A stretch of DNA of 64,000 nucleotides, taken from assembly GCA_035291665.1 (NCBI GenBank), contig DATDRP010000003.1:212549-276548 (forward strand). Direction: 5' to 3'. Below the pieces are notes generated by a model. The model ran no database searches and was not told the origin of the DNA. It worked only from the letters and a program-made list of their open reading frames with translations. Source of the stretch: Patescibacteria group bacterium. Lineage in GTDB: Bacteria > Patescibacteriota > Microgenomatia > UBA8517. The position numbers were made by a program, and so were the translations under genes. Below are positions 1,023 to 48,146 of this stretch, one piece after another. Numbering within the stretch: the stretch's first letter is position 1; each line of letters opens with the position of its first letter.

Positions 1023-1376
1023 TTACAGCTTTGCCTCATTAAGCTTCAATCTGGCCTTGACCAATTTTTTGATTAAAGCGAGAGGAAGTTTTTTATCCAA
1101 GGGAAACTGAATTGTCGACTTTGCAGTTTTGTAACCTTTCAATTCCTTTATATACAGTTCGATAACCGGAGGCGGGATATAAAGACCAATGTGATTATTA
1201 AAGATTGCAAAATAGGCCAACCGTCCTTTAAAGCCAAAATAAGGCATCCTGTAACTGATTTTTTCTTCCGCGTCGGGGCAAACCTTTTTTATGGTCTTGC
1301 GGAGTTCTTTAAGCTTACGTTGGACATCTTTCGGAGCATTTGATATGTATTCGTCAACTGTTCTTACCTTTTTCAT
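1023..1376 (-). CDS. DUF1801 (YdhG-like) family protein
   Basis: 117 aa. Overall size and sequence (KVRTVDEYI...MPYFGFKGR) resemble DUF1801. Confidence 0.55.
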   Translation of the reverse strand: MKKVRTVDEYISNAPKDVQRKLKELRKTIKKVCPDAEEKISYRMPYFGFKGRLAYFAIFNNHIGLYIPPPVIELYIKELKGYKTAKSTIQFPLDKKLPLALIKKLVKARLKLNEAKL

Positions 1377-1421
1377 TGGTAAATTATATCAAATGATTTA
1401 CTTACGAAATGAAATCAGAAT

Positions 1422-2147
1422 CTATCGCAAGCTTATCCAATCATAAACAAATTTCATTCCAATAATTAAAATTGCGATCAGGACCACTTTTTTGAACTTC
1501 TCTTGGGGAATCCGTTTTATAATATGCTTTCCTGTAAAGGACCCTCCAAGTGCAATAATAAATAAAAAAGGGATATACCAAAAATACTGATTACTTAAAA
1601 ATCCGCCTGCAAAATACAAAGGGATTCTTGTTATATCAACAGCAAGAGCAATGGCTGCGGCTGTAGCGATATATCTTTCTTTAGGCAGACCGAATGCTGT
1701 TAAAAAAGCCCCCCGCAAAGCCCCTCCGGTTCCGATTAAGCCTGCCAAAAAACCCGAGAGACTTCCTCCAAGAATTGCATTATAAAACGATGGGGCTATC
1801 TTTAAACCGTTTTTGAGGAGTGATATGAAAGCAAAGGCAACAAGAAATAATCCCAATATACCTTTCAGAACATCCTGAGAAACAAAGCCTATTAATAGTG
1901 CACCAATAAGAGTAAATGCGACACTGGGTATACCAAAAATAATAAGGGTTCGTTTATCCAAACCGTGCTTAAAAAAACTGATTCTTCCCAAATTGCCAAA
2001 AAAATGAAGTAATGCCACAAGTATTAATGCTGTTTTGAAATCAAGAAAAAGCAGTGCCAGAGGAAGAAAAATCGTAGACGAGCCGAATCCTGCAATGGTT
2101 CCGACAATTTCTGATATAAATGCCGCCAGGAAGAATAACAATACCAT
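1422..2147 (-). CDS. TauE/SafE (DUF81) family membrane permease
   Basis: 241 aa polytopic membrane protein with two Gly-rich half repeats (IAGFGSSTIFLP / GLIGTGGALRGAFL) typical of TauE/SafE. Confidence 0.65.
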   Translation of the reverse strand: MVLLFFLAAFISEIVGTIAGFGSSTIFLPLALLFLDFKTALILVALLHFFGNLGRISFFKHGLDKRTLIIFGIPSVAFTLIGALLIGFVSQDVLKGILGLFLVAFAFISLLKNGLKIAPSFYNAILGGSLSGFLAGLIGTGGALRGAFLTAFGLPKERYIATAAAIALAVDITRIPLYFAGGFLSNQYFWYIPFLFIIALGGSFTGKHIIKRIPQEKFKKVVLIAILIIGMKFVYDWISLR

Positions 2148-2204
2148 TATTTTAGCCTAGCACAAATTCAAGGCTAAGAGGTTACAAAGTCCCCGAATTA
2201 ATGA

Positions 2205-2879
2205 CTACTCCCCTGACAGGATACGTGTTGATTTGGTTCCCATAATAAGCCTCAAAAACCAATTGTTTAACCTGTCCTTTGTGGGATGAAATTGCTGTAG
2301 TACCCCAAAAGATGAATCAGACATCCCTTCAGCTGCACTTGTTTCCGATTGATATGCCAGTCGGGACCAGAGTTCGCAGCTTTCTTTATTTTCCGGAAGT
2401 AAAATCAAATTTTCATCAAAACAATAAGACTTGGCTTTTTTGAAAAAATCTTCAGTAATATCAATGTTGCTGTTTGCATATTTAATTGTGTTCAAATAAT
2501 AAGTAATCACTTTGATTTGGGTTGTTTGGTCCAACTGGGCAATATAACTTACGGGTTCGGACGATTGCGTCCATACATCAGAGGAATATCTGAAGGGAGA
2601 ATATAATAAATTCACGGTTGTCCCCTCTTTGACGTAAGTATTATTTTGTTTAATTATCGAATTTGCTTGAATCATATTCATGACAATTTCATTTTCAAGT
2701 GCCTCCAACATTCTTTGTTTTTGAACATTTTCCTGAATACTCACCGTAACGATATTCACAATTAAACTGAAGACTGCTCCAAATATTAATCCGCCAATAA
2801 AATTGTCTATTTTGGTTTTTTTTAATAACCTGAACGGGAAGGTAAAAACGAGAAGAACACCACTGAAAATTTTTTTCAT
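2205..2879 (-). CDS. hypothetical membrane-anchored protein
   Basis: ORF with N-terminal hydrophobic helix. No recognisable domain. Confidence 0.4.
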   Translation of the reverse strand: MKKIFSGVLLVFTFPFRLLKKTKIDNFIGGLIFGAVFSLIVNIVTVSIQENVQKQRMLEALENEIVMNMIQANSIIKQNNTYVKEGTTVNLLYSPFRYSSDVWTQSSEPVSYIAQLDQTTQIKVITYYLNTIKYANSNIDITEDFFKKAKSYCFDENLILLPENKESCELWSRLAYQSETSAAEGMSDSSFGVLQQFHPTKDRLNNWFLRLIMGTKSTRILSGE

Positions 2880-2960
2880 ATCAATATCTTAAAAAATCCA
2901 ACGGGGCAATTTGACTGGATTCTACCACTTTCTCAGAAAACTTTCAGAATTAAGATTGAA

Positions 2961-4526
2961 TTAATCTGCTTTGGGGAGCCGAACAATAAATACCGCACCT
3001 TTTGGTGTATTGTCAGTTACTGTAATACTTCCTCCATAGCGTTCAACGGTCATCCTTACAATGTACAAGCCCAACCCGGAATGGCCGGTTTCTCCATATT
3101 TGAATCCTTCGGTGAAGAGTTTGACTTTAACATCATCCGGAATCCCCTTACCTTCATCGGCAATTTTTATGTTCACAAACTTTCCCGAAACATTAACTTC
3201 AATATTGACCACATCTGATCCCGAATGCATCTGGACATTTCCGATAATGTTATCAAAAACAGAGGTTATAGCTTCGTCAGCGACAACAGACGCGGCACCG
3301 GTTGTTGTAATTTTCATTTTAGGATAATTCTCAATTACTGTTGATATTACCTTTGACACATCGACCGGTTTCAGTTCACCGCCCGCCAAAACACTATTCT
3401 CCAAATCTCTCATTTTTTTAATGAACTCCATTCCTCTTGCAACAGCAGATTGCGAATCGCCTATAAATGTCTCAACTTGTAATTTATCCTTCATATCCTG
3501 AAACATTTCCAAATTGCCCTGTATTATTGTCAGGTCATTGAGTAAATCATGTCTAAGAAGTTTATTCAGTACTTTTAAAGTTGACGTAAGTTCGCGAATT
3601 TTTATATCTCTTGCCTTCAGTTGACTTGCCATCTGGTTAAAACCTTTTGCCAACGTTCCCAATTCGTCATGATTCTCAACACTTACTTCATAATTGAAGT
3701 TGCCTGATGCTATCTCCCGGCTTCCTTTCTGAAGCTTCGTAATTGGTATGATTAAAAGTTTTTCAGCAACAAAATACCCTAACATAATTGCAAAAATCAT
3801 ACTGAGAATCAAAGATGTATAAGTAATCAATTCTACTTTCATTATTATTCCTGAGACATGTTGATGTTGATCCTCTGATGTCTGCGTATTAAATTCAACC
3901 ATCTGGGTTATTTTGCCTCCCATCTCAGTTTTTATATTTTTAATGGCGGATAGCACTTCATCAAGCTCTGCATGCTGCTCCTCGTGCGTTTCCCCTTGTT
4001 CATGCAAACGAAGTATGCTTTTCTTTAGCTGAAAAGCACGTTCAGACTTCGCTACAAGTTTGTCAAATAAAGCATCTACTTCAACCATCAATCTTGCATT
4101 TGCTTCATCAGACTTATGAATTTTGTAAATATTATTAAACCCGTGGAGTATCCATTCGCGGTAAATTATTCCACCGTCTAATCTTTTAAAATTCTCTGAA
4201 TCACTTCCTTCAATGACGGCTTGTGCAAACATCTCAAAATTAAGAACATTTTTATTAAAGTTGGCTTCTGAGTCGCGTATAATTTGAATGTCAGTGATAT
4301 CCTCTGCACGAAATGCAGCTGATAATTCTCCGGTGACTCCTTCCAAAGCAACCAAAACCTGCTGTGTTGCCAACGAGGTCGGCATTTGGTTTTCAATATG
4401 GTCTTCAAAATTCTTTGAAACGATCGACAGATTGTAAAGAAAGATAACTCCCAGAATAAGAAGAAAACCGACAAGTCCCAAAAATATGAGTGTTAGCTCA
4501 GTTTGAATTGAGCGAAGTTTTTTCAT
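2961..4526 (-). CDS. sensor histidine kinase (two TM, HAMP, HisKA, HATPase_c)
   Basis: N-terminal TM, periplasmic region, second TM. HAMP-like linker (LAKGFNQMASQL), H-box (LLRHDLLNDL), G-boxes (DEGKGIP, GLGLYIV). Confidence 0.8.
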   Translation of the reverse strand: MKKLRSIQTELTLIFLGLVGFLLILGVIFLYNLSIVSKNFEDHIENQMPTSLATQQVLVALEGVTGELSAAFRAEDITDIQIIRDSEANFNKNVLNFEMFAQAVIEGSDSENFKRLDGGIIYREWILHGFNNIYKIHKSDEANARLMVEVDALFDKLVAKSERAFQLKKSILRLHEQGETHEEQHAELDEVLSAIKNIKTEMGGKITQMVEFNTQTSEDQHQHVSGIIMKVELITYTSLILSMIFAIMLGYFVAEKLLIIPITKLQKGSREIASGNFNYEVSVENHDELGTLAKGFNQMASQLKARDIKIRELTSTLKVLNKLLRHDLLNDLTIIQGNLEMFQDMKDKLQVETFIGDSQSAVARGMEFIKKMRDLENSVLAGGELKPVDVSKVISTVIENYPKMKITTTGAASVVADEAITSVFDNIIGNVQMHSGSDVVNIEVNVSGKFVNIKIADEGKGIPDDVKVKLFTEGFKYGETGHSGLGLYIVRMTVERYGGSITVTDNTPKGAVFIVRLPKAD

Positions 4527-5173
4527 TATAATTCCCTCTCAATTGCTCGAATGTCCATTACCGCTTTAATGATTCCTACAACTTTACCCTCGGAACCGAT
4601 TACCGGGACATAAAGTGAAACCGATTCAGATTGCGCACTCTCATCATACTCGATATCCCCGTGATAGGACTTACCGACCCCGTCAGCATACGCATCGATC
4701 CACCATTTTTCATCAGCTTGATAGTAGTCGCTTGTTTTATTGGTTTGGCCTACATTTAAGCCCTTTGAATCTGTCACGAATATTTCGGGAAATCCGGGAT
4801 TCAACTCCTGGAATTCTAATAGCTCAAAGGCAACCTTATTGGTTAGATATCCATCAACAAAACCGCCCCGATTTGTTAACCAATCTTCGTCCAGCTTTTC
4901 AATCTGTTTGGTTGTTAATGTGGCGTTTTTTATAGATTGGGATAGCGTTTCGGAAACAATAACATCATTTGTAGCCAGATTTTCGATTAGGGAAAGCTTT
5001 TTACCAACGACCTTCTCAACCTCAGGAGATAGTTCATCCAAAGTCTGCTGAATAACATTTTCATTGGCTGACCTGTTGGCATTTCTGTAAAAATATAACC
5101 CGCCAGAAACAGAAGCAAGTATTAAAACCGCTAACAACAAGCCAATACGTTCAGAAACAATTTTTCTTAACAT
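4526..5173 (-). CDS. membrane-anchored periplasmic sensor-like protein (possible accessory to the kinase)
   Basis: N-terminal signal anchor. Its stop overlaps the kinase start (ATGA). Domain family not recognised. Confidence 0.45.
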   Translation of the reverse strand: MLRKIVSERIGLLLAVLILASVSGGLYFYRNANRSANENVIQQTLDELSPEVEKVVGKKLSLIENLATNDVIVSETLSQSIKNATLTTKQIEKLDEDWLTNRGGFVDGYLTNKVAFELLEFQELNPGFPEIFVTDSKGLNVGQTNKTSDYYQADEKWWIDAYADGVGKSYHGDIEYDESAQSESVSLYVPVIGSEGKVVGIIKAVMDIRAIEREL

Positions 5174-5220
5174 GGAGACTTCATATCCAGCTTAACGAAT
5201 TAATCCGACCAAAACAATAA

Positions 5221-5273
5221 CATCTTCCCCGCACCAAAGTGCGGGGTTTTCTCCCTAAGGAAGATGTTTTTTT
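5221..5273. terminator. nested hairpin with T-tract (also the minimal member of the hairpin-repeat family)
   Basis: catcttcc-CCCCGCAC-caaa-GTGCGGGG-ttttctccctaagg-aagatg followed by T7. Lies between two minus-strand genes. Confidence 0.4.
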
Positions 5274-5438
5274 GACTAAAGTCATAAGCTTTGCTTATTT
5301 GCCTCAATTCATCCCTGCAACAAATTGAAGGGTATTCTTGAGGTCGATTAATAAGATGTTCAAAAGTTCAAATAGCGAAATTTGATTGGATTCAATCACT
5401 TTCCCTAAATTTTTTTCAAGTTAATGTAAGAAGGCGGA

Positions 5439-5954
5439 TTATTTAAGTTCTGAAAGTTTGTCGACAAATTCTTTTGGATATTTTATTGCTAATAACTCTC
5501 CTGTTTCTTTAGGACTAAACCAACCAAAGTCTATATGTTCGTCACTAATTGTAATACTCTTAATATCACCAACATTACAAATATAGGAAGAAAGAATCAA
5601 TCCGACAGTGTCGGCACCGACAGGGATTCTCACATTGTTAGACAAGACCATAGTAAACGGTGAAAAACTCGAAATTGAAGTAATACCAGTTTCTTCCCTC
5701 ACTTCTCTTTTAAGAGTGTCTTCAATGTTGCTATTTTTGTGAATCCTTCCACCCGGAATGTCCCAATAGGGTTCACCGGAATACTTTTTCAGTTTTTTGG
5801 GGTTAACCTTCAAAAGAAGAATTCTACCTTCACTGTTTCTGATTATTGCTTTTATCCCTAAATGAAAAATATCCTCCATACGATTAAATTGTAACAAAAG
5901 TTTGATGTTAAATGTTGGTTTTACCAATACTGAAACTAATAAGTCATTAATCAC
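5439..5954 (-). CDS. NUDIX hydrolase
   Basis: Nudix box GGRIHKNSNIEDTLKREVREETGI (Gx5Ex7REVxEETGI). Confidence 0.75.
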   Translation of the reverse strand: MINDLLVSVLVKPTFNIKLLLQFNRMEDIFHLGIKAIIRNSEGRILLLKVNPKKLKKYSGEPYWDIPGGRIHKNSNIEDTLKREVREETGITSISSFSPFTMVLSNNVRIPVGADTVGLILSSYICNVGDIKSITISDEHIDFGWFSPKETGELLAIKYPKEFVDKLSELK

Positions 5955-5970
5955 ACCAGTTGCGATTTAG

Positions 5971-6534
5971 TTATTTACTCCTCCCAAGCCATCGATTAAA
6001 GGCGTCGTTGAAAGGTGTTACCCTTTGGACTCCAAATGACTTCCTGACAATACTTAACGACTTACCAAGTAAAAGTCTTGCTTGGAAAGCTTTAAGGTCC
6101 TGTCTATAGAGATTCTTTACCGACACTCCAATTTCGGTTGAGTTTTCCCCATCCCAATAATCTCTTGTAAACCCTTCGGGCATACATTCATCCCACGTAG
6201 CATCTACAACACTTTCGTTTCCACCCAGGCTTGCATACAAAAATAAATGGGAATCTATCGGATCTTTCAGTAAAGCTGTAATCTCTTCCGGAATCGGTAA
6301 TTCTCTCCAATTAAAGGTGGCTATACCCAAGGAAACCTTGTACCCCAAAGGTAGTAATTTAGCAGCAAGATATAAGTGTTTTCTCGTGCAGTTTCCCTTA
6401 TTTTCTACCAAAAGTTTTTTAGGGTTTCCATCAAGTCCTAAGACATAAGGAATGTTTTTAACTCTGGAAAAAACAGATTTGGCTTCATAGATTACCTCCT
6501 CCCAATCTTTACCTCCTCGAGATTCGCCTGTCAT
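5971..6534 (-). CDS. transglutaminase-like cysteine peptidase superfamily protein
   Basis: GNCTRKHLYLAAKLLPLGYKVSLGIATF matches the G-C-...-R-x-G-I-P-A-R catalytic Cys region. Downstream His (DSHLF) and Asp (VVDAT). Confidence 0.5.
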   Translation of the reverse strand: MTGESRGGKDWEEVIYEAKSVFSRVKNIPYVLGLDGNPKKLLVENKGNCTRKHLYLAAKLLPLGYKVSLGIATFNWRELPIPEEITALLKDPIDSHLFLYASLGGNESVVDATWDECMPEGFTRDYWDGENSTEIGVSVKNLYRQDLKAFQARLLLGKSLSIVRKSFGVQRVTPFNDAFNRWLGRSK

Positions 6535-6565
6535 GCGCCGTATTATATTATATATAAAGTGTTAT

Positions 6566-6678
6566 GACATCCTCCCCCGAGTCTGACTCGGGGGTTTCCC
6601 TAAGGAGGGGGACATATCTGAGTTCAATTCATCTACGTTCATGTAAACTTAACGTAGTTTTCTTGAAATCTGTTATAA
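6566..6678. repeat. structured intergenic repeat element (hairpin-repeat family, full-length copy)
   Basis: Perfect palindrome CCCCCGAGTC-T-GACTCGGGGG at 6574-6594. Outer pairing catcctcc...ggaggggga. Second hairpin ctacgtt...aacgtag. Conserved tail ttcttgaaatctgttataa. Related copies at 11443-11492, 33060-33265, 42173-42290 and 5221-5266. Confidence 0.7.
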
Positions 6679-6689
6679 TTTTGCCAAAC

Positions 6690-6989
6690 ATGCAAGAGCA
6701 AAAGATAATTGGATTAGACAATTCAGTTCTCGAAGAAATTATTAGGGGCGGAGGCGGATTTGCACGGCAAGCATTAGAAGAACTTTCGGGAAGGGCAATG
6801 GGTGGAAACCCCGATGCACGAAGCCTAGTTATGAAAATAGACAACGAAGTAAGTTCAGGTCATTTAACATTACCGACCGAAGAGGTAAAACCTGAAAACA
6901 ATACTATAAGTTTGAAAGATCGACTCAAAAGTGCATTTAACCGGCAGGGTAAATTACAGCATTTTCTACCTCCAGATAGAGATCCCTGA
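6690..6989 (+). CDS. hypothetical protein
   Basis: ORF trimmed to the internal ATG at 6690, because the upstream part of the track ORF is the repeat element. Confidence 0.35.
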   Translation: MQEQKIIGLDNSVLEEIIRGGGGFARQALEELSGRAMGGNPDARSLVMKIDNEVSSGHLTLPTEEVKPENNTISLKDRLKSAFNRQGKLQHFLPPDRDP

Positions 6990-7058
6990 AAAGCCCTTGA
7001 TTTTTGTACGTAAAAGTAGTTCGAAAAATCCTATTAACGCGATATAGTAAAATAACGT

Positions 7059-8050: not shown

Positions 8051-9004
8051 TTATTGATTTTCGGTATCTTTGCTTTTTACTATATTTGGATTTGGATATT
8101 TTACTTGCATTTTTGCATCCATTTCTTTAAACCCTGTAAGGTCAAAAATATGTGCTGGTCTTCCGTCAACTGAGAGGTAGTCTTTGGCAAAAAAACCCTG
8201 ATCAGATCGGCAATTTAATGGATGAGTATCTCGGTATTTTCTGGTGATGATCAAATCTCCACGATTTTTGACCCCTCTTGCCTGGTATTTAGTAAAAACA
8301 TTGTCAGGCATGGCCGCAAAATATGAGATATAGCCAATCTTTTTGACACCTTGCTCAATAATATCGGTCTGGATGGCAAGGTCAAAAGATTGATTGGCCA
8401 ATACCAAACCAATTAATTCTCCTGCTTTAACTTTGCCCTTATTCACATTAGGAGCTCTTTGAACATGCTGAAATTCGATAGAAATATTTGGATAAGCACT
8501 GGGGGCTACTCTTAGCTCCTGGTTATAAGAAACCCCCGAGTCATCAAAATCCAGAAAGCCGTCAACTGGTGTAAAAATTTTGACATCATTCTCCAGCGTG
8601 GGTGTAGGAAAATTTTCTATGCTCAACCCTTCATATTTATAGTTTGGCTGTTTATCATCATACGTACTGAAATAGTGCTTCATGCTCCGACATGTTTCCC
8701 CGCTTAGATAAGAATAATCATGACCCATCCCGGAACGGAATTTTGAGATACTATAAACTTTGTCGAGCTCTACAAAATCTGTCTGGATAAATTTTGAGGG
8801 ATTATCGGGGTCGATGGGTGGTTCTTCATCTACCGTTTTTTCAGCTTCTTGGAACTTTTCCTGTTTAAGTTGAGCAATATCTTTTACGATCCCTTTCAAG
8901 ACGAAAAGGAAAAAAATGAGGAGGGGAATCAGGATAACTATAAGTATCCACCTGTTATTTGGCTTCGATGGATTTTGTCTATTGGTAGTAGAAACATTCT
9001 TCAT
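8051..9004 (-). CDS. hypothetical membrane-anchored secreted protein (paralog family with 17248-18303 and 24763-25602)
   Basis: Start placed at the internal Met before the signal anchor (RWILIVILIPLLIFFLFVL). The track ORF extends to 9100. Confidence 0.4.
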   Translation of the reverse strand: MKNVSTTNRQNPSKPNNRWILIVILIPLLIFFLFVLKGIVKDIAQLKQEKFQEAEKTVDEEPPIDPDNPSKFIQTDFVELDKVYSISKFRSGMGHDYSYLSGETCRSMKHYFSTYDDKQPNYKYEGLSIENFPTPTLENDVKIFTPVDGFLDFDDSGVSYNQELRVAPSAYPNISIEFQHVQRAPNVNKGKVKAGELIGLVLANQSFDLAIQTDIIEQGVKKIGYISYFAAMPDNVFTKYQARGVKNRGDLIITRKYRDTHPLNCRSDQGFFAKDYLSVDGRPAHIFDLTGFKEMDAKMQVKYPNPNIVKSKDTENQ

Positions 9005-9189
9005 TAAATCAAGTATTACATACTCAGAAAGGTTGCTCAAACAATACACTCGAAGGGTGGTCAGACCCTGCCACTCTGGAAAATATGCAAAATTGAACAC
9101 ATATTTCGAGTACTATCAGGATCGCTTATTGCCCTACCCTTATGAATTTGAAAAACGAACGAGGAGGAAGGATTTATAACTATATAGGA

Positions 9190-11346: not shown

Positions 11347-11508
11347 TTGTATAGTGTATCAAATTTTTGGATACATTTAGTGCCAATAGGTTATAACACT
11401 GAGCTTATCGAAGTGCTCCCCCTGGTTGGCGTATTTAAGAATGACATCCTCCCCCGAGTCTGACTCGGTGGTATTCTTGAAATCTGTTATAAATGATAAA
11501 CTGAATCC

Positions 11509-14911: not shown

Positions 14912-15063
14912 CTCCTCCGGTAGGATTCCCTTCGATTACACTCAGGGTAAACTTCTCATCCTACCGAACGCTTCTACTCGCCATGCTTGCACTGAGTGAA
15001 GCGTAGTGAGCCGAAGGGCTCCCCCGGTAAGTCTACTTTTGATTACAAAAGATCTTGGCCGGT
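14912..15063. repeat. degenerate tRNA-Asn 3'-end-like direct repeats (two adjacent copies) with shared flank GCTTGCACTGAG...GCCGAAG
   Basis: ctcctccggtaggattcccttcga (14912-) and gctcccccggtaagtctacttttgattacaaaagatcttggccggt (15018-15063) resemble the genuine tRNA-Asn 3' end ctcctcggctaggatttgaacc at 18859. Confidence 0.6.
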
Positions 15064-18352: not shown

Positions 18353-18468
18353 GCTCCCCCGGTAAGTCTACTTTTGATTACAAAAGATCTTGGCCGGTGT
18401 CGCAAATTTCTCTGCGATAAATTTACTCCCCCGGTAGGATTCCCTTCAGCTTCGTTCAGGGTAAACTC
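18353..18468. repeat. 46-bp repeat copy plus second tRNA-Asn-3'-end-like copy
   Basis: gctcccccggtaagtctacttttgattacaaaagatcttggccggt (18353-18398), then ctcccccggtaggattcccttcagc (18426-). Confidence 0.65.
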
Positions 18469-18769
18469 ACAACAGGTTCTCACCAGCCAGAAGAGCTTCA
18501 ACAAACTCAGTATATGTATTATATCCCAACTTGCCTTCTACTAACATTTGCTTCTTTGCTCTTGACCAACCTTTAATTTGTTTTTCTCTAATAGCTGCCA
18601 AATGTTCACCGGGATATTTTTCAGCATAAATAAGTTTCAAATCAGAAAATTTTTTGGTAAAAAAAGAGACCTTTGATTTATGTTGTTTTATTCTGTTTAC
18701 AATATCAGGGGTTATACCAATATAAAAAGTTTTTTGGTCGCAAAGAAGCATATAAACATACCATGACAC
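18467..18769 (-). CDS. GIY-YIG nuclease family protein (UPF0213/YhbQ-like)
   Basis: WYVYMLLCDQKTFYIGITPDIVNRIKQH matches the GIY-x10-YIG motif. ~100 aa. Confidence 0.7.
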   Translation of the reverse strand: MSWYVYMLLCDQKTFYIGITPDIVNRIKQHKSKVSFFTKKFSDLKLIYAEKYPGEHLAAIREKQIKGWSRAKKQMLVEGKLGYNTYTEFVEALLAGENLL

Positions 18770-18859
18770 TTATTCTTTTCCATAAAATAACCTGCACTGA
18801 GCCCTTCAGTTTCATTCAGGACTGTGCAACTGGTGCTTGCACTGAGCTTGCCGAAGTGC

Positions 18860-18930
18860 TCCTCGGCTAGGATTTGAACCTAGAACCTTCTCGTTAACAG
18901 CGAGCCGCTCTACCGTTGAGCTACCGAGGA
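18860..18930 (-). tRNA. tRNA-Asn (anticodon GTT)
   Basis: Manual fold of the reverse complement: acceptor tcctcgg/ccgagga, D arm gctc-aacggta-gagc, anticodon loop cuGUUaa, T arm ctagg-ttcaaat-cctag. Confidence 0.75.
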
Positions 18931-36890: not shown

Positions 36891-38684
36891 TTAACGGTTT
36901 TCAGATTCGAGCCTGCGTTTTTTTTCAATTACCTGACCGAAACGGACTTTCATTTTCCGAAGCATATCTATATTTTTCTCTTTTTGATATTGTTTCATTT
37001 TTACAATGAGATCCGACTGCTGACTTCTTAGATCAATCAGCTCAATCTGGGTTTTGGAATCCTGATATTCTGCCTCGACCTGGACCGGAGTGTAACTGTC
37101 ATAATCAATAGAATATTTGAGGATTATTTCAGAAAACTGAAGTTTAATTTCTTCCGGAAGCCCCTGTACAAATACCTCAAGAGAAAACTTCTTAAGATTT
37201 TTATGGTTATTTATGAAGATACTGATTGCTTTTTTCAATACAGGCTTTGTAATGTATTCAAAAAAATCATTATCAATATACTTTTTCGGGTCCGATAAAA
37301 ATACCAAAGCTGTGAGATTTTCTTCAAGCATTGTGCGCCTATCTTTTTTGGCCTCCCCTCCCGGACCTTTGAGAGTCTCGCGTTTACTTGGTTTAGCTTT
37401 AGTTTTTTCCACCTGAGCAAAAACTGATTCGTATGGGATACCAATCTTCCCGGCAACAATATTGATATATTTTGCTTTTGTTATTTCATCTTCTATAGAT
37501 GAAAGCATCGGTACAAGCTCCCGAGAAATGTCCGAAACCCCCTCGCCTGAGCTCAAATCATACCTCTCAATCGTACTATTGATAATAAAATCATAAACGG
37601 GAACTGCATTTTTAAGCGCTTTTTTTAATGCATCGGGATCCGATCTGGCCATCTCATCAGGGTCCTTATATTTTCCTAATCTTGCGACCCGGATTTTCAT
37701 TCCCTGCACCTGCGCGATTTCAATTCCGCGGCGGGCTGCTTTGTTTCCGGCAAAGTCGGTGTCCAGTGCAAAAACCAGATTTTTCGTAAATCTGGAAATA
37801 AGCCTTACTTGGTTTTCAGTTAAGGCCGACCCTTTAATGGCGACTATGTTTTTTATCCCTTCCTGCCAAGGCGAAATTGTATCTATCTCTCCTTCAACGA
37901 TCACGCAACGATTCTCCTTTTTGATTTCACCTTTGTTAATATCAAGCGCATATAAAATATCCGATTTGTGATAAATGGGGGTTTCCGGAGTATTAATATA
38001 TTTGGCTAAATCGGAACTTGCTCCTGGAAGCGTTCTTCCTGAAAACCCGACAACATTCCCCCGATGGTCCTTCAGCGGAAAAACCACCCTTCCAAAAAAC
38101 CGGTCGAAGACCGTGTTCCCTCTCCGATAGGCAAGGCCGCAAAGTTCAAGATCTTTCGGACTTATTCTTTTTTTCCTGACAAAAAAGGACTCAAAAATTT
38201 TCGGATCGGTAGGAGAGTATCCCAGCTCAAATGTCTCAAGTGTTTTAACTTTCAGACCTCTTTCGGATAAAAGATAATTCAATGCAGCCTTTCCGCTTCG
38301 ATGCTTTGTCAAAAGGTATTGATAATATTTTTTTGCCAGTTCATTTATTTCAAGACAGGTCTTACGCTCCCGGTCGTATGAGGTGTTTCTTGGTTTAAGT
38401 TCAACGCCTACTTTTTCCGCCAGATACTGAAGCGCTTCGGAAAAATCCATCCCTTCGTATTTTTCCAAAAAGCTGATTACATCACCTGACTCGCCGCAGC
38501 CAAAACATTTATATATCCCCAGTTCGGGTGATACCATAAATGAAGGTGTTTTTTCGTTGTGGAATGGACAGTTCGCCTTGAAATTTCGTCCCGCTTTTTT
38601 CAGATCTACACGCTCTCCGATAATCTGAACAATATCGGCTTTTTGCTTTACCTCTTCAACATCATTCCCCATACTTTTGCCCAA
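36891..38684 (-). CDS. dnaG: DNA primase
   Basis: CHC2 zinc finger CPFHNEKTPSF...CFGC. TOPRIM acidic residues (VIVEGEID, LDTDFAG). Confidence 0.9.
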   Translation of the reverse strand: MGKSMGNDVEEVKQKADIVQIIGERVDLKKAGRNFKANCPFHNEKTPSFMVSPELGIYKCFGCGESGDVISFLEKYEGMDFSEALQYLAEKVGVELKPRNTSYDRERKTCLEINELAKKYYQYLLTKHRSGKAALNYLLSERGLKVKTLETFELGYSPTDPKIFESFFVRKKRISPKDLELCGLAYRRGNTVFDRFFGRVVFPLKDHRGNVVGFSGRTLPGASSDLAKYINTPETPIYHKSDILYALDINKGEIKKENRCVIVEGEIDTISPWQEGIKNIVAIKGSALTENQVRLISRFTKNLVFALDTDFAGNKAARRGIEIAQVQGMKIRVARLGKYKDPDEMARSDPDALKKALKNAVPVYDFIINSTIERYDLSSGEGVSDISRELVPMLSSIEDEITKAKYINIVAGKIGIPYESVFAQVEKTKAKPSKRETLKGPGGEAKKDRRTMLEENLTALVFLSDPKKYIDNDFFEYITKPVLKKAISIFINNHKNLKKFSLEVFVQGLPEEIKLQFSEIILKYSIDYDSYTPVQVEAEYQDSKTQIELIDLRSQQSDLIVKMKQYQKEKNIDMLRKMKVRFGQVIEKKRRLESENR

Positions 38685-40497: not shown

Positions 40498-42039
40498 ATG
40501 TCTCAGAGTAAAAAATCTTATTTTCTGCAAATTCTTGCCGTTGCGGCAATATCGCTTTTTGTGGTTCTCCCTACTCTTATCGGGGTATTTCACAAAATCC
40601 CAGGGAAAACTTTTACCGGCAACACGTTCTATTTTGACCCTTGGGATGTGAATGTTTATGTATCCGCCGTCAACTACTCGCAAAAATTCGGGTTTGACTT
40701 TGAAAATATGTACACCACAGAAAATTTTCCGAACAGAGTAAATTTATATCCTTTATATAGCCTGACCGGAACGCTTTTCAAAAATATAAATCCATTTCTG
40801 GTGTATTACCTACTGATTATTTCCGCAATTTATGTTTTCGTTCTTGTTGTAGGTAAAACCATAAAATTTGTAATTCCTGTTCCTTTAAATAGATTTTATT
40901 TTATTATTTTACTGTCCTTGTCGGGTGGTTTTGGATGGCTATTGTTTGGCAATATTCCGTCGGCGGACATCACCACAACGCCTTTTACTTTTCTAAACAT
41001 GCTTCAAAGGCCGCATGCAACCGCCGCAATATCTTTCTATATCGCCTCTTTGATAAGCTTCTATCGGTTTTCCCAAACCAAGGCAAAGAAATATTTAACT
41101 TTATCGATCATATCTCTTTTTGTATTTGCAATATTTTATCCATATCTTTTGTTAAGCTTTTACGCAACGATTTTTATATACAGTTTGTTTTTATATCATA
41201 CGGAAAAAAACACTCTCGGAATAAAAACCGTTTTGAAAATTTTCTTCTTAACGCTTATTCCTGCCGCTATCTACTCTTTATATATTCTGAAAGGATCTCA
41301 ATTTAAAGGAGTTCTGAGTCCTAACCTGCCAACACCGCAGATTCTATATATTTTCCTCGGCCATGGTGTTTTTTTAACGGGATTAATATACCAGATCTTC
41401 AACAAAAAAAGGTCAAATCTTTCAACTTTTCTTATCATCTGGTATCTTTCGGGGATACTTCTTTCTTATGCGCCAATCTCCTTCTCGAGATATTATTTGA
41501 GTTCGCTTTTTTTCCCTATAACTCTATTACTATACATTTCCAAAAAAGATTTATTAAAGATGATCAAAAGTATCCATCTTCGAACAACGTTGGTTGTTAT
41601 ATTTATATTTTTCGGGACGCTCACCAGTTGGGTAATTCTTTTCGTCAGAATCCTGGCTGTATCGATGTCCAGCAGATGGGCTTACCTTGATGAGTCTTAT
41701 TTTGATATTTTCAAATTTCTCAATAGAAATTCCCCGTCAGGATCCGGAGTAATGGTTACCTACCCTATATCAAACTTTATTCCGGTCTACACCTACAATA
41801 AAGTCTATCTCGGACACGGTGCGCAAACTTTTAACGCAGTTGAGAAAGATGCGTTGCAGAAAAGATTTTACGATCTGACCATTTCAGAAGATGGGTTAAA
41901 TTCAATTATAAAAAGCAATGTTCGTTACGCAGTTGTTGAAAACAATTCGGTTGATATGTATCTGAACCTTAATTCCCAAACAACAAAAATCGGAAGTGTG
42001 TATCAAAGCGGGAACTATACTTTATTGGAATTCAGATAA
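40498..42039 (+). CDS. GT-C-type polytopic membrane protein (DUF2079-like)
   Basis: More than 10 TM helices plus a C-terminal soluble domain. Confidence 0.45.
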   Translation: MSQSKKSYFLQILAVAAISLFVVLPTLIGVFHKIPGKTFTGNTFYFDPWDVNVYVSAVNYSQKFGFDFENMYTTENFPNRVNLYPLYSLTGTLFKNINPFLVYYLLIISAIYVFVLVVGKTIKFVIPVPLNRFYFIILLSLSGGFGWLLFGNIPSADITTTPFTFLNMLQRPHATAAISFYIASLISFYRFSQTKAKKYLTLSIISLFVFAIFYPYLLLSFYATIFIYSLFLYHTEKNTLGIKTVLKIFFLTLIPAAIYSLYILKGSQFKGVLSPNLPTPQILYIFLGHGVFLTGLIYQIFNKKRSNLSTFLIIWYLSGILLSYAPISFSRYYLSSLFFPITLLLYISKKDLLKMIKSIHLRTTLVVIFIFFGTLTSWVILFVRILAVSMSSRWAYLDESYFDIFKFLNRNSPSGSGVMVTYPISNFIPVYTYNKVYLGHGAQTFNAVEKDALQKRFYDLTISEDGLNSIIKSNVRYAVVENNSVDMYLNLNSQTTKIGSVYQSGNYTLLEFR

Positions 42040-42040
42040 A

Positions 42041-42115
42041 ATGCGCAATCGAAAACCCTACCTCAACGCGAGTGCAACGAGCGGAGCGTCAAACGCACCA
42101 ACCGAGTTTGACTAT
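42041..42115. repeat. 75-bp direct repeat, copy 1 (copy 2 at 43026-43100)
   Basis: atgcgcaatcgaaaaccctacctcaacgcgagtgcaacgagcggagcgtcaaacgcaccaaccgagtttgact vs atgcgtaatcgaaaaacctgcctcaacgcgagtgcaacgaccagagcgtcaaacgcaccagccgagtttgactcgg. Confidence 0.8.
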
Positions 42116-42172
42116 ATAGTGTTTAGTTGAATTTATTGAAACTTATTATTAAACAATTTACTATTCTAATGG

Positions 42173-42290
42173 CATCCTCCCCCGAGTCAAACTCGGGGGT
42201 TTCCTCAAGAGGAGGATGACATATCAGAGTTCAATTCACCCTCAGATTGAAAGTCCGGGGTTCTCTTGAACGCTGTTATAGAATTTACTA
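42173..42290. repeat. hairpin-repeat family, full-length copy
   Basis: catcctcc-CCCCGAGTC-aaa-CTCGGGGG-tttcctcaagaggaggatg, acatatcagagttcaattca, hairpin ccctcagattgaaagtccgggg, ttctcttgaacgctgttata. Confidence 0.7.
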
Positions 42291-42905
42291 CTAACTCATC
42301 TTTACTTCTAATAAGGGTTTTCCGTTATCGTCTAGGACCTTTAATATTCCTGTTTGTGTATCCAAGCTGACATCCTTGCCTTCTCCACTACTAAATACTT
42401 TGACATTTTTTATCCCTTTCTTTTTCAAGTATTCAGCTATAGCTTTATTCCAACTTTCTCGATCTCCTTCCAATTCTTGCACGTATGGATCTAAACTGCT
42501 TGTGTCACCTAAGACATAAGGTAGGGCACTTTTGGATAGGTCTGGGACTGCTTCCAATAATTGATCTATAAGTTCTTCATGTCTGTTTCCCCATAAATCC
42601 ACAGCATTTATATGGATAACAGCTCCATTTTTACCAGCATTTTCATACATAGCGATAACTCTACAGGCACCACCCCATGCCTCTAATACAGGACCATCCC
42701 TACCTATAACAAAGGTATCTGCTTTTGCGTAAAGACGGCCATTTTCTCGACTGTGTCCTTCTTGCGTTTTGCCATCTTGTAGAAATGCGGACTCCCCCCT
42801 ATTACGGTTTATTCTCCTTACAGTTTTTTCCTCTGAGTGTGTTTCCATAAGTATTTTAGTTCTAACTTCCTCAATTGTGCGGTGAGGGAGGGTCTCCTTC
42901 GTCAA
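42291..42905 (-). CDS. hypothetical protein (cassette gene between 75-bp direct repeats)
   Basis: 204-aa ORF with a GC-richer, hydrophilic composition unlike its neighbours. No family recognised. Confidence 0.45.
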   Translation of the reverse strand: MTKETLPHRTIEEVRTKILMETHSEEKTVRRINRNRGESAFLQDGKTQEGHSRENGRLYAKADTFVIGRDGPVLEAWGGACRVIAMYENAGKNGAVIHINAVDLWGNRHEELIDQLLEAVPDLSKSALPYVLGDTSSLDPYVQELEGDRESWNKAIAEYLKKKGIKNVKVFSSGEGKDVSLDTQTGILKVLDDNGKPLLEVKMS

Positions 42906-42981
42906 GACTTCGAAGACTAAGGATTCTCAAGTTTTAGTATTCTAATCAAAGCAGCCTGCCGTCCCGTAGCATTGGCGTAGG

Positions 42982-43004
42982 GCGGTGAGGGAGGGATTCG
43001 AACG
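42982..43004 (-). other. partial duplicate of tRNA-Ser(GGA) 3' end (att-like)
   Basis: ggcggtgagggagggattcgaac is identical to the 3' end of the tRNA at 43102-43125. Confidence 0.7.
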
Positions 43005-43025
43005 CACAATTTGCAACACCTTACA

Positions 43026-43100
43026 ATGCGTAATCGAAAAACCTGCCTCAACGCGAGTGCAACGACCAGAGCGTCAAACGCACCAGCCGAGTTTGACTCG
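43026..43100. repeat. 75-bp direct repeat, copy 2
   Basis: See copy 1. Abuts the tRNA-Ser 3' end. Confidence 0.8.
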
Positions 43101-43101
43101 G

Positions 43102-43188
43102 CGGTGAGGGAGGGATTCGAACCCTCGATGGCGTTGCCGCCATACACGCTTTCCAAGCGAGCCGATTAAACCGCTCTCGCACCTCACC
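43102..43188 (-). tRNA. tRNA-Ser (anticodon GGA), class II with long variable arm
   Basis: Reverse complement: acceptor ggtgagg/cctcacc, anticodon loop uuGGAaa, variable stem atggcg-gcaa-cgccat, T arm gaggg-ttcgaat-ccctc. 87 nt. Confidence 0.7.
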
Positions 43189-44875: not shown

Positions 44876-44965
44876 GGAGGTGTGCCAGAGCGGACGATCG
44901 GGCTTGTTTCGAAAACAAGTATCTCATGTTTAATGGGATCAGAGGTTCGAATCCTCTCACCTCCG
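44876..44965 (+). tRNA. tRNA-Ser (anticodon CGA)
   Basis: Acceptor ggaggtg/cacctcc, anticodon stem cttgt/acaag with loop uuCGAaa, long variable arm, T arm agagg-ttcgaat-cctct. Confidence 0.75.
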
Positions 44966-45024
44966 CTCTCTTCGCTCACTTCGGTGTAAGGGTTCGATAT
45001 TGCGAATCAAGGATTAAAACTGTG

Positions 45025-45047
45025 CAAGGCGAATCTTCTCACATCCG
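45025..45047 (+). repeat. degenerate copy of tRNA-Ser(CGA) 3' end (second copy at 46181-46204)
   Basis: aaggcgaatcttctcacatccg and aaggcgaatcttctcacctccgcc vs the tRNA 3' end ttcgaatcctctcacctccg. Confidence 0.65.
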
Positions 45048-45281
45048 CAGATTGGAACAATTCTCGGGTTTTAAGAGTATGTCATACGACTGTTGAGTGA
45101 AGCTCCAAACAAGCTTTTTGTCCTTAACCATCACGCTCTAACCGACTTTTTCAACCGCTTTGCGTTTTGATATTAAATCACCACTTAAAATCAATTCCCG
45201 AGCTTGGAAAGCCGTAGTTATAAAATCTTCGGCTAGTTCCAACCAATAACGTTGAACATAACCCGTCATCAGTTTTTGAGC

Positions 45282-46133
45282 CTACCTTAAACCCTCTACG
45301 AAGCGTCTATCACCATAATATCGTGCATATGTGGCAAGGCAAAGCCTCGCATAGTCAAAATATGAGGTTTGCCTTTGGAAACCCGTTGGATAGCCATTAG
45401 CTCTTACAAGGTTCATTCCGGCAGCCCAAGCGTTTCTTTCATGAAATAAGTGAATTGTTTTGTCTACTCCATGACTTCGTGCTTCTAGACGAGTGAGTGC
45501 ATATCTTGTTGCTTCAAAAGGTGGTTGTTGTTCCCGAATACCGTACGGGAGTGCGTGGGCTAATTCGTTACCATAGGTTTGCACCATTGCAACAGGTGGT
45601 AAATCCCTTCCCTTTAGTGATATGGCGGCTTTAAGTAATCGCGTATCAAGGTCGTTGTGGAATATCAATACATGACCTAACTCATGATAAGTGGCGGACA
45701 TTCTAGTCATGTTTTCCTTTAACTCATCTACTTGTAGGCCAATGACGTAAAATGGATACTCTCTTCCACTCATGAGCGGGTCATGCGCATAAAACCCGTT
45801 TGTTGTACCAGTAAATAAAACCGGTTTTCCCTTTGAAGTTGTAAGTGATAAGTTAGATTTTCTAATATTACCTTTTTTCCTAACTTGTTCTAATTTTCCC
45901 GTATAAACCTGAATATGGCTAGACATGCCAAATCGTTCGGGCATGTTATACGTTCCAACTTGAGAAAAGGTAAGCCTTGCGTTTGGCCAGACAATTTGTG
46001 CCGGGAGCGGTATATGAGCAGCTTGGTCAATATCAATTTCCGTAAAGCTACTTTCAATCCCACCTTCAATTCGTGCCTCTTGTGGACGGGGTCTTTCATA
46101 ACCACTAGTACCGCTCTCAATTCCCATAATCAC
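45282..46133 (-). CDS. putative HExxH zinc metallopeptidase (cassette gene)
   Basis: YHELGHVLIFHND motif. Bounded by the two tRNA-3'-end-like repeats. Confidence 0.5.
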   Translation of the reverse strand: MIMGIESGTSGYERPRPQEARIEGGIESSFTEIDIDQAAHIPLPAQIVWPNARLTFSQVGTYNMPERFGMSSHIQVYTGKLEQVRKKGNIRKSNLSLTTSKGKPVLFTGTTNGFYAHDPLMSGREYPFYVIGLQVDELKENMTRMSATYHELGHVLIFHNDLDTRLLKAAISLKGRDLPPVAMVQTYGNELAHALPYGIREQQPPFEATRYALTRLEARSHGVDKTIHLFHERNAWAAGMNLVRANGYPTGFQRQTSYFDYARLCLATYARYYGDRRFVEGLR

Positions 46134-46180
46134 ATATTATACTATAAGCTATAATTAAATTAAATGATTTTATGCTTTGT

Positions 46181-46204
46181 AAGGCGAATCTTCTCACCTC
46201 CGCC
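46181..46204 (+). repeat. degenerate copy of tRNA-Ser(CGA) 3' end, distal
   Basis: aaggcgaatcttctcacctccgcc, followed by the GACTCAGACTCGG palindrome-like motif. Confidence 0.65.
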
Positions 46205-46254
46205 GACTCAGACTCGGCTGGGACATTTGAAGTTTTTGTTCAGAGTGGCACAAT

Positions 46255-47576: not shown

Positions 47577-47974
47577 GGGGACGACCGGTTTCGACGGGAA
47601 AGCACCTTAAAAAACTGCAAGCCGAGTTTAATTCACACTCGCTAATAATGGATTAACAAATAAACGCTGATAACGAAAGTTACAGTCCAGAAGCAATAGC
47701 TTCAACTTTGCTCGGTACTAACCAAGCCAATTGGGCATTTGCTTAAACACTGGTGTCGTTTGAAAGGTTCTCAATCGTTTCAAAACGGCATAAACCTATT
47801 GAGATAAGCCAACAGCCGTTGACTGCAAGCTGTAGGTCGAAAAATATTCAGTCTTACTTGAAAGAAGGTCGTTAGTAATCTAACTTTCAAGAAAATATAA
47901 AAATACTAACTAAGCTTGTAAGAAAAGTTTTTTATTTACTTTTTCGGACGAGGGTTCGATTCCCTCCGTCTCCA
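47577..47974 (+). ncRNA. ssrA: tmRNA (ssrA)
   Basis: 5' GGGGACGACCGGTTTCGACGGG. 3' GGACGAGGGTTCGATTCCCTCCGTCTCCA paired with the 5' end. Internal tag ORF ...ANWAFA-stop. Confidence 0.9.
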
Positions 47975-47983
47975 CATATAAAA

Positions 47984-48012: not shown

Positions 48013-48128
48013 TGCTGAAAACCAAAGGAGGGATGAGAATTTATTCGCTCACTAGATTTGCGGCTTTGAAATCTTTAGATGAAAAATAAAGCAAACCTAG
48101 TGATATGAAATTTGTCTGAATTTCATAT

Positions 48129-48146
48129 TCCCTCCGTCTCCACCAA
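48129..48146 (+). repeat. duplicate of tmRNA 3' end (ttccctccgtctccacca)
   Basis: 18-nt identity with 47960-47976. This copy carries a full CCA. Confidence 0.7.

Follow-up and report, generated by a model that had tools for sequence, protein, structure and literature searches.

A candidate decayed islet at a tRNA-Ser(GGA) gene of a Patescibacteria genome and its CheD-like cargo protein

How does a single gene come to stand between two direct repeats beside an intact tRNA gene? The question is raised by a locus within a 64,000-nucleotide stretch of contig DATDRP010000003.1 (hereafter the window, to which all coordinates without another label refer), part of a Woesebacteria-like Patescibacteria metagenome-assembled genome (MAG; GCA_035291665.1) whose host is an ultra-small groundwater bacterium. 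A sequence-only reading had proposed that a small element carrying one novel cargo gene, here called ORF204 (ORF, open reading frame), was captured at the tRNA-Ser(GGA) gene of this locus. Our tentative answer, held at a little under an even chance, is that 42037-43099 is the eroded remnant of at least one small integrative element at the 3' end of tRNA-Ser(GGA). By our verdict the locus would then be a decayed tRNA-linked islet of about 1 kb, of an ordinary kind and with a mildly novel cargo.

The intact tRNA-Ser(GGA) gene (43100-43188, minus strand; found by ARAGORN and scoring 50.4 bits with the Rfam tRNA model) anchors the locus, and its segment from the T-loop to the 3' end is copied downstream. 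Read along the minus strand, the tRNA is followed by repeat copy 2 (43022-43098), which is its direct 3' trailer, an 18-nt spacer (43004-43021), an exact 23-nt copy of the tRNA 3' end (42981-43003), an 88-nt segment (42893-42980), a 14-nt copy of the tRNA acceptor 3' strand (42879-42892), a gap of 30 nt, ORF204 (42291-42848), two strong hairpins (42169-42275, strand not assigned; fold z-scores -3.1 and -4.2), repeat copy 1 (42037-42113), and finally the stop codon of a convergent gene on the plus strand (40498-42039) for a 513-aa polytopic membrane protein without a Pfam match. The two direct repeats already seen in the sequence-only reading are therefore real, and measure 77 nt with 70 of 77 positions identical (91%). 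Each consists of a first part of about 35 nt, termed h, and a second part, termed A, that opens with TCGTTGCACTCGCGTTGAGGCAGGTTTTTCGA. Copy 2 stops one nucleotide short of the tRNA's CC end, and copy 1 is cut off on one side exactly at the would-be tRNA end and on the other at the TAA stop codon of the 513-aa gene, with which it begins. A 14-nt near-repeat, TTTACTATTCTAAT at 42157-42170 and TTTAGTATTCTAAT at 42933-42946, also flanks ORF204 and its hairpins inside the 77-nt repeats, and may be due to chance.

Stacked copies of a tRNA 3' end that start in the T-loop are a classic signature of site-specific integration. The longer copies at tRNA-Ser(GGA) run from the T-loop to the 3' end of the gene, as attachment-site (att) identity blocks would, and the 23-nt copy, spanning T-loop to CC, resembles an att core. 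This copy had been recognized earlier, with coordinates one base off; the 14-nt copy, CCCTCCCTCACCGC, had been missed. The latter lies 31-44 nt upstream of the ATG of ORF204, and its sequence occurs three times in the window, all within 310 bp, against no occurrence in 100 shuffles. The two segments that precede the copies have counterparts elsewhere, as was apparent from an alignment of seven such scars: the 18-nt spacer, between repeat copy 2 and the 23-nt copy, carries a motif, ..TTGCAAATTGTGCGTT at the boundary with CGAATC, that we term the type-1 scar end and that recurs in scars at other tRNA-Ser genes, and the 88-nt segment starts with CTACGCCAATGCTACGGGACGG and ends with CGAAGTCTTGACGAAGGAGA, resembling the scars 3' of tRNA-Ser(CGA) and tRNA-Ser(GGA) in L021. 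L021 is one of the loci used for comparison, seven of which were fetched through their DnaG genes and an eighth (L012) by a DNA-pattern scan.

To place these copies in a wider context, 15 kb downstream of every tRNA and transfer-messenger RNA (tmRNA) gene was probed by script with the last 15 nt of that gene. Copies of the 3' end were found downstream of tRNA-Ser or tmRNA genes, which are classic targets of integrases, in 4 of 9 genomes. In the window they lie at +105 and +208 from tRNA-Ser(GGA), at +68 and +1219 from tRNA-Ser(CGA) and at +154 from the tmRNA; in L021 they accompany all three tRNA-Ser genes (+43 to +98), in L028 tRNA-Ser(GGA), tRNA-Ser(GCT) and the tmRNA (+64 to +69), and in L012 tRNA-Ser(UGA), with a copy of 34 nt at +65. 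No copy was found at tRNA-Arg genes in any genome probed, and L017, L018, L026 and L027 had no copies at all, i.e. they present empty sites. All copies start in the T-loop (..CGAATC..) and end at the 3' end of the gene. Each reproduces the gene beside which it lies, even though start and end motifs are common to inserts at different genes. Two sequence families of spacers, shared by different tRNA genes and genomes, can be told apart: type 1 has AAGGAWTT..TGTGCAWGG at its end, immediately ahead of the copy, and type 2 contains GGGATGAGAAGTTTA-CCC-TGAGCGAAGTCGAA-GGG-AATCC or a compensatory variant with TGG..CCA, a change that suggests a conserved hairpin in the spacer. Judged by sequence, these short 3'-end copies look like scars of site-specific integration.

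Several further observations belong to the same pattern. The L021 scars at 4925-5012, 6179-6289 and 6942-6998 have spacers homologous between loci, and in L021 and L028 almost all tRNA-Ser genes, along with one tmRNA gene, are followed at a distance of 40-100 nt by a repeat of their own 3' end, 15-19 nt long. Beyond the window's tmRNA gene (47577-47975) come a terminator-like hairpin, a stretch with the type-2 start GGGATGAGAATTTA and 17 nt that reproduce the tmRNA 3' end exactly (48127-48143); a similar copy lies 69 nt downstream of the L028 tmRNA. Two type-2 motif copies on the minus strand, at 14919-14968 and 18433-18482, end like the 3' end of tRNA-Asn (AATCCTACCGGAGGAGC versus AATCCTAGCCGAGGAGC), and lie about 0.4 and 3.9 kb downstream of the tRNA-Asn gene (18858-18930). 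Between them are ORFs without a Pfam match and one M23-peptidase-like ORF, which may be another islet.

The short spacers invite a different explanation, in which tRNA-Ser and tmRNA genes receive, in their stretch from T-loop to 3' end, miniature non-autonomous inserts of 40-150 nt, occasionally with one gene, that produce target-site duplications of 14-34 nt; the ORF204 unit would then be a cargo-carrying member or a composite of two inserts. Target duplication would account for own-gene copies joined to shared motifs more simply than many element variants would, the inserts are short in at least ten cases from four genomes, copies of the core motif CCTGAGCGAAGTCGAAGG also turn up scattered at sites other than tRNA genes, and the compensatory change described above fits a conserved hairpin. 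However, we know of no prokaryotic transposition mechanism in which duplications of 14-34 nt always end at the 3' end of a gene, and a copy ending there is exactly what an element whose own attachment site (attP) carries a tRNA end predicts. Neither terminal inverted repeats nor a transposase were found, copy lengths vary widely and no insertion polymorphism was observed, all of which makes this explanation improbable.

The 77-nt repeat itself offers a second line of evidence. Its two conserved cores occur exactly twice each in the window, against 0.01 and 0.27 expected by chance. The A part, TCGTTGCACTCGCGTTGAGG, is identical at 20 of 20 positions to sequence immediately 3' of a tRNA-Ser(UGA) gene in L012, the most distant relative (47% identity in DnaG, 86% in sigma-70), and the first 15 nt of A recur there after the 3'-end copy of the same tRNA. 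Since this core recurs beside tRNA-Ser(UGA) in L012, it would belong to the att-associated sequence. The four closer relatives that have the tRNA-Ser genes at this locus lack the core. A is absent after tRNA-Ser(GGA) in L017, L018 and L021, and a profile of h plus A found no copy in L025-L027. A search of metagenome contigs with the 19/20-nt core returned one true relative, again L012, and nine chance matches in high-GC DNA; the 20-mer had no match in 185,579 species-representative genomes and a single one in a viral contig (L022), which is uninspected and, its contig being of equal length, was taken as the same chance match as metagenome L010. With two copies in the window and one true relative, the repeat is not part of a widespread family, an outcome that would have spoken against the sequence-only reading. 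From its sequence relationships we regard it instead as a tRNA-trailer or att-associated sequence that travels with integration scars, and we interpret copy 1 either as the native tRNA trailer or as a second copy of an element-borne one. Both window copies have h and L012 lacks it, so the duplication appears to have occurred within this lineage.

One ORF between direct repeats of 60-140 nt is also the layout of an integron cassette, and the 77-nt repeats might accordingly be considered attC sites around a promoterless ORF. An inverted pair inside the repeat (GTCAAAC...GTTTGAC) adds to this likeness. On the other hand, attC-like folding was rejected, as the single strands fold no better than shuffled sequences (z from -1.0 to +0.6 as DNA and from -2.0 to +0.85 as RNA), and the inverted pair is internal rather than terminal. 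There are two copies and no array, no integron integrase (IntI) lies nearby, and one of the copies is simply the trailer of the tRNA. A cassette of the integron type is thus scarcely credible.

Could the repeats and tRNA-end copies instead serve a function at the RNA or DNA level and never have been mobile, for example as a trailer-processing element, a terminator or a small peptide gene? The h part together with the terminal CC of the tRNA forms a hairpin, CCGAGTCAAACTCGG, an h-like hairpin follows three tRNA-Ser ends or copies, and copy 2 with the tRNA end folds moderately (z = -2.0). Both copies also start with an ATG and keep a 25-codon frame open. Yet copy 1 is unfolded, Rfam gave no match to the repeat, either with its gathering thresholds or with E <= 5, a search for terminator-like sites in it was negative, and most relatives lack the sequence. 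An encoded peptide was rejected from the differences between the copies, five of the six in-frame changes being non-synonymous and one synonymous (the seventh difference lies just upstream of the ATG). We regard a purely functional signal as very improbable, and both this and the integron reading as essentially excluded.

A second single-gene islet with the same geometry as that at tRNA-Ser(GGA) occupies 44876-46240 of the window. Here the tRNA-Ser(CGA) gene (44876-44966) is followed by a 63-nt type-1 scar and a 19-nt copy of the tRNA end (45030-45048, 17/19 identical). Beyond it lies a 283-aa ORF on the opposite strand (45282-46133) with an HELGH (HExxH) motif, no Pfam match and no homologue in the relatives, and then a second tRNA-end copy (46185-46203, 18/19 identical) that is preceded by the type-1 end motif and succeeded by an h-like trailer (46203-46240), identical to the h part of the 77-nt repeat at 23 of 29 positions. 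In L017, tRNA-Ser(CGA) directly abuts a ComF-like gene.

To decipher how the interval around ORF204 varies, we compared it with the corresponding loci of relatives, all of which are remote: the window's DnaG (36891-38684) has no relative above 53% identity among 5.8 billion proteins, the best being from Woesebacteria and Microgenomates. At about 50% DnaG identity, a tRNA-Ser cluster stands beside dnaG in 6 of 8 relatives. L017, L018 and L021 share the order SmpB, tmRNA, ComF-like gene, tRNA-Ser(CGA)/tRNA-Arg, 183-aa gene, tRNA-Ser(GCU), NUDIX, tRNA-Ser(GGA), a gene for a membrane protein of about 400 aa, a homologue of a 555-aa gene, DnaG and sigma-70, and the same genes are partly rearranged in L012, L026 and L027. 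The interval from tRNA-Ser(GGA) to DnaG holds other genes in 5 of 6 syntenic relatives, and in L012 the tRNA abuts dnaG. In particular, the gene of about 400 aa lies between tRNA-Ser(GGA) and the 555-aa gene in L017, L018, L021 and L027 (where the 408-aa gene matches Pfam GT87); it is not in the window, where ORF204 and the opposite-strand 513-aa gene take its place. As neither of the latter has a homologue in the loci of L012, L017, L018, L021 and L025-L027, the interval from 40.4 to 43.1 kb is lineage-specific, and the 513-aa gene may belong to the same variable segment because it occupies the interval of the relatives' gene of about 400 aa. The 513-aa protein had no match in the species-representative genome collection, and the ideas that its gene is an inverted form of the gene of about 400 aa or a paralogue of the 555-aa gene were rejected for lack of similarity. 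Likewise, a 102-aa ORF after the tRNA in L018 was rejected as a truncated ORF204 by a profile search of six-frame ORFs in all relatives. No tRNA gene was found in the 21.8 kb of L025 (Woesebacteria RIFCSPLOWO2_01_FULL_39_23), and the L029 sequence begins about 0.9 kb upstream of dnaG. At the position of the others' tRNA-Ser cluster, L025 carries a 502-aa large serine recombinase and small ORFs (1267-7056).

These comparisons bear on an explanation by local rearrangement. On this view ORF204, a gene specific to the lineage, would stand on the tRNA's native flank, with the tRNA fragments upstream of it as small scars of independent origin. The second copy of the 77-nt repeat would derive from the trailer, through ectopic or segmental duplication or through gene conversion, and would not mark the junction of an inserted element. 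The sequence after the 14-nt copy (ACAATTGAGG) resembles the flank that follows the tRNA or its copy in L021 and L018, in the latter a native flank, and the preceding scar end, the core and the flank together match L021 6975-7005 (31 nt, 87%). Flanks of this kind would put the ancestral tRNA end immediately upstream of ORF204. The presence of h in both window copies and its absence from L012 points the same way, to duplication within the lineage, as do the native composition of ORF204 and the lack of a recombinase and of polymorphism. Against this, the flank similarity covers only about 10-17 nt, and copy 1 begins within 1-2 nt of the position that the tRNA end has in copy 2, a precision that fits site-specific events and not random duplication. 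Moreover, the gene of the tRNA-Ser(CGA) islet clearly lies inside two tRNA 3'-end copies and that islet ends in an h-like trailer, and ORF204 is missing from the loci of all relatives. We consider local rearrangement unlikely on balance, though deserving of serious attention.

We return, then, to integration as the tentatively preferred account. Site-specific recombination would have brought one or more small integrative elements into the 3' end of tRNA-Ser(GGA). Each arrival would have swapped the segment from T-loop to 3' end for an element-borne copy and pushed the previous copy downstream, so that the 23-nt and 14-nt fragments and the short scars between them would be the leftovers of serial integration. 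If the element-borne att region comprised the tRNA 3' end and about 77 nt of trailer (h plus A), the trailer would now be present twice, beside the intact tRNA and at the distal limit of the insert. A single cargo gene would survive between the trailer copies, lying inside or perhaps just beyond the integrated DNA, and the recombinase gene would be gone from the neighbourhood. With the recombinase gone and the islet fixed in the sampled population, the unit is probably no longer mobile. This suggested order of events is read from the anatomy alone.

Lineage-specific DNA, stacked tRNA-end copies and the twin locus support the captured element proposed by the sequence-only reading, and a number of observations weigh against it. 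The 23-nt and 14-nt copies enclose only about 95 and 207 bp and leave ORF204 outside both, and no tRNA fragment stands ahead of repeat copy 1. A search with Pfam of every ORF of at least 110 aa found no integrase or recombinase between 35.5 and 47.5 kb. The atypical composition claimed for ORF204 stood only in part: its glycine content is somewhat raised (9.7% versus 6.7 +/- 2.0%), but its GC content is native (0.400 versus 0.394 +/- 0.037 in 45 window ORFs) and its GC at third codon positions is in fact lower (0.296 versus 0.365 in window ORFs). The likeness of the sequence after the third fragment to the L021 and L018 flank would put ORF204 on an ancestral flank, and the repeated reduction of elements to scars of 40-150 nt is unexplained by simple integrase biology. 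No close relative was found in the collections searched, and those at hand are too distant to date or delimit the insertion; with the nearest at about 50% DnaG identity, a clean empty site between the 77-nt repeats was not seen. Presence or absence of the unit between the repeats also failed to vary in public data, where 9-10 contigs from several samples were 100% identical in arrangement and sequence and showed neither an empty-site allele nor a circular junction. The break points of public short-read (Logan) contigs fall within the hairpin repeat (42212) and within the tRNA (43128/43129), and not at the 77-nt repeats. Finally, two remote homologues of ORF204, P0045 and P0041, have no flanking repeats.

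What does the surviving gene encode? The ORF is real: it gives 204 aa if the TTG at 42905 is used and 185 aa from the ATG at 42848, the start that is annotated and supported by homologues. A hypothetical protein encoded on a 606-kb contig of a Patescibacteria MAG has the same sequence. Profile and structure searches, as the sequence-only reading had advised, revealed a rare unannotated family. An exhaustive HMMER search found 43 cluster representatives among 1.84 billion, and the family profile recovered 4 proteins only from a word-indexed protein database. Most members are about 170-220 aa long; some are C-terminal domains of proteins of 300-1089 aa with low-complexity N-termini, in which no informative domain partners were found. 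Pfam, PHROGs and PADLOC hold no model for the family. An origin in defence systems, phages or plasmids was rejected after negative results with PADLOC, PHROGs and tblastn against plasmids and phages, and in BFVD the only matches to ORF204 were giant-virus CheD-like proteins.

Across an alignment of 27 sequences the only invariant columns are Cys62 and His79, which form a Cys-x17-His pattern. The family profile matches CheD of Thermotoga maritima (2f9z; E = 5e-4) with this Cys and His aligned. The AlphaFold model of the protein is confident (predicted local distance difference test, pLDDT, 93.6; predicted template modelling score, pTM, 0.90), and Foldseek against the PDB returned CheD on top (E 1e-6, template modelling (TM) scores 0.59/0.69), followed by NTAN1, YfiH and CNFy, with no other significant matches. 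In CNF1/YfiH-like cysteine hydrolases, which adopt an alpha-beta-beta sandwich, a Cys/His/(Ser/Thr) triad deamidates Gln or Asn, the third residue (Ser/Thr or a backbone carbonyl) orients the His, and the Cys-His spacing is 17 in both CheD (C27/H44) and NTAN1 (C75/H92) (PMC7022378). ORF204 shares this spacing. Based on the model, we are confident that it has a CheD/NTAN1/CNF1-like fold, and together with the invariant Cys-x17-His this makes it probably a protein amidohydrolase, with deamidation of a protein or peptide as the likeliest activity. Most likely the predicted hydrolase would act on a protein by deamidating the side chain of a Gln or Asn; Cys62 is the putative nucleophile and His79 the putative general base. 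Counting against the assignment, the third triad residue is not evident, as Thr21 of CheD aligns to Ala57 in the profile alignment, with Glu56 adjacent.

Is the protein then simply a CheD? It resembles CheD (PF03975) in fold, in the spacing of its invariant residues and in size (about 160-185 aa). In contrast, sequence identity to CheD is about 17%, the Pfam CheD model matched 1 of the 27 members at E = 0.22 and places the window protein below the family threshold, and the NCBIfam CheD models match 3 of the 27 (about 1e-5), the window protein not among them. An N-terminal beta-hairpin region (motif DGETAYF...YA.ADTF) is specific to the ORF204 family, some members stand at the C-terminus of long low-complexity proteins, and no chemotaxis genes were noticed among the scanned window ORFs. 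Being below the CheD threshold, the protein represents a new family of the CNF1/YfiH-like superfamily and not a CheD.

A few of the more remote matches deserve mention. P0022, a 739-aa protein with multiple PAS repeats, matched ORF204 residues 63-130 in five stretches (E 8e-13 overall); the match may be spurious or may hint at a shared beta-sheet motif, and P0022 was left out of the family alignment. The homologue P0041 follows an SdpI-like membrane-protein gene, and P0045, whose setting counts in favour of the integration account, is the last gene of a DUF87/Replic_Relax/HTH_17 block beside a tRNA-Leu with tRNA-like fragments. That region, 3' of P0045 (8649-9115 of L014, from an unrelated high-GC genome), holds tRNA-Leu(TAG) and two tRNA-Leu-like partial copies (8855-8921 and 9049-9115, 73% alike), and may be another integration hot spot.

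The hairpin repeat reported beside ORF204 is genuine and dispersed. The unit at 42169-42238 (TGACATCCTCCCCCGAGTCWRACTCGGGGG...) matches 6564-6631 (87% over 70 nt) and 11440-11476, and the core of this family has a relative in the CCGAGTCAAACTCGG hairpin of the 77-nt repeat. The family core (TGACATCCTCCCCCGAGTCWRACTCGGGGGTTTCC..GGAGG..) is also seen at 46203, 48198 and 59558.

Islands associated with tRNA and tmRNA genes derive from elements that have a tyrosine integrase and include the target gene's 3' end in their attP, which leads to tandem accretion and to remnants like those termed CIME (cis-mobilizable elements). Such islands and remnants are reportedly treated by Williams (2002, NAR) and in the Streptococcus literature on integrative and conjugative elements (ICE) and CIME. 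The locus described here resembles them in the intact tRNA at one end, the stacked T-loop-to-3'-end copies, the lineage-specific content and the target classes, tRNA-Ser and tmRNA. It differs in its size of about 1 kb, its single gene, its native composition and the absence of an integrase nearby, and also in that the gene is bracketed by a tRNA-trailer repeat and not by tRNA fragments and that the scars of 40-150 nt belong to shared sequence families. Unlike insertion sequences (IS) and miniature inverted-repeat transposable elements (MITE), the 985-bp unit has no inverted repeats at its ends, and its duplications are variable in length (14-77 nt).

Although we consider it improbable, it is worth spelling out what the miniature-insert explanation would mean for these organisms. 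Woesebacteria-like members of the Candidate Phyla Radiation (CPR) may host sub-kilobase, recombinase-less mobile units that settle at the T-loop-to-3' ends of tRNA-Ser and tmRNA genes and share arm motifs; such units would leave the gene whole by duplicating 14-34 nt of their target, and would occasionally carry one cargo gene. If true, their cargo would include a CheD-like deamidase and an HExxH protein, in a form of gene shuffling similar to that of integron cassettes but anchored on tRNA genes.

The genomes of CPR bacteria, or Patescibacteria, are tiny, and the routes by which these organisms gain genes are poorly known. On the tentatively preferred reading of integration followed by decay, current ideas are not overturned, and the locus would be a well-documented example rather than a new principle. 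Together with the tRNA-Ser(CGA) twin and the scars in three other genomes, it suggests that in this lineage foreign DNA in very small pieces may repeatedly have entered at the 3' ends of tRNA-Ser and tmRNA genes. Its cargo appears to define a rare, unannotated branch of the CheD/NTAN1/CNF1 deamidase fold, and the occurrence of this family both as stand-alone proteins and as C-terminal domains makes it a candidate protein-modifying enzyme or effector.

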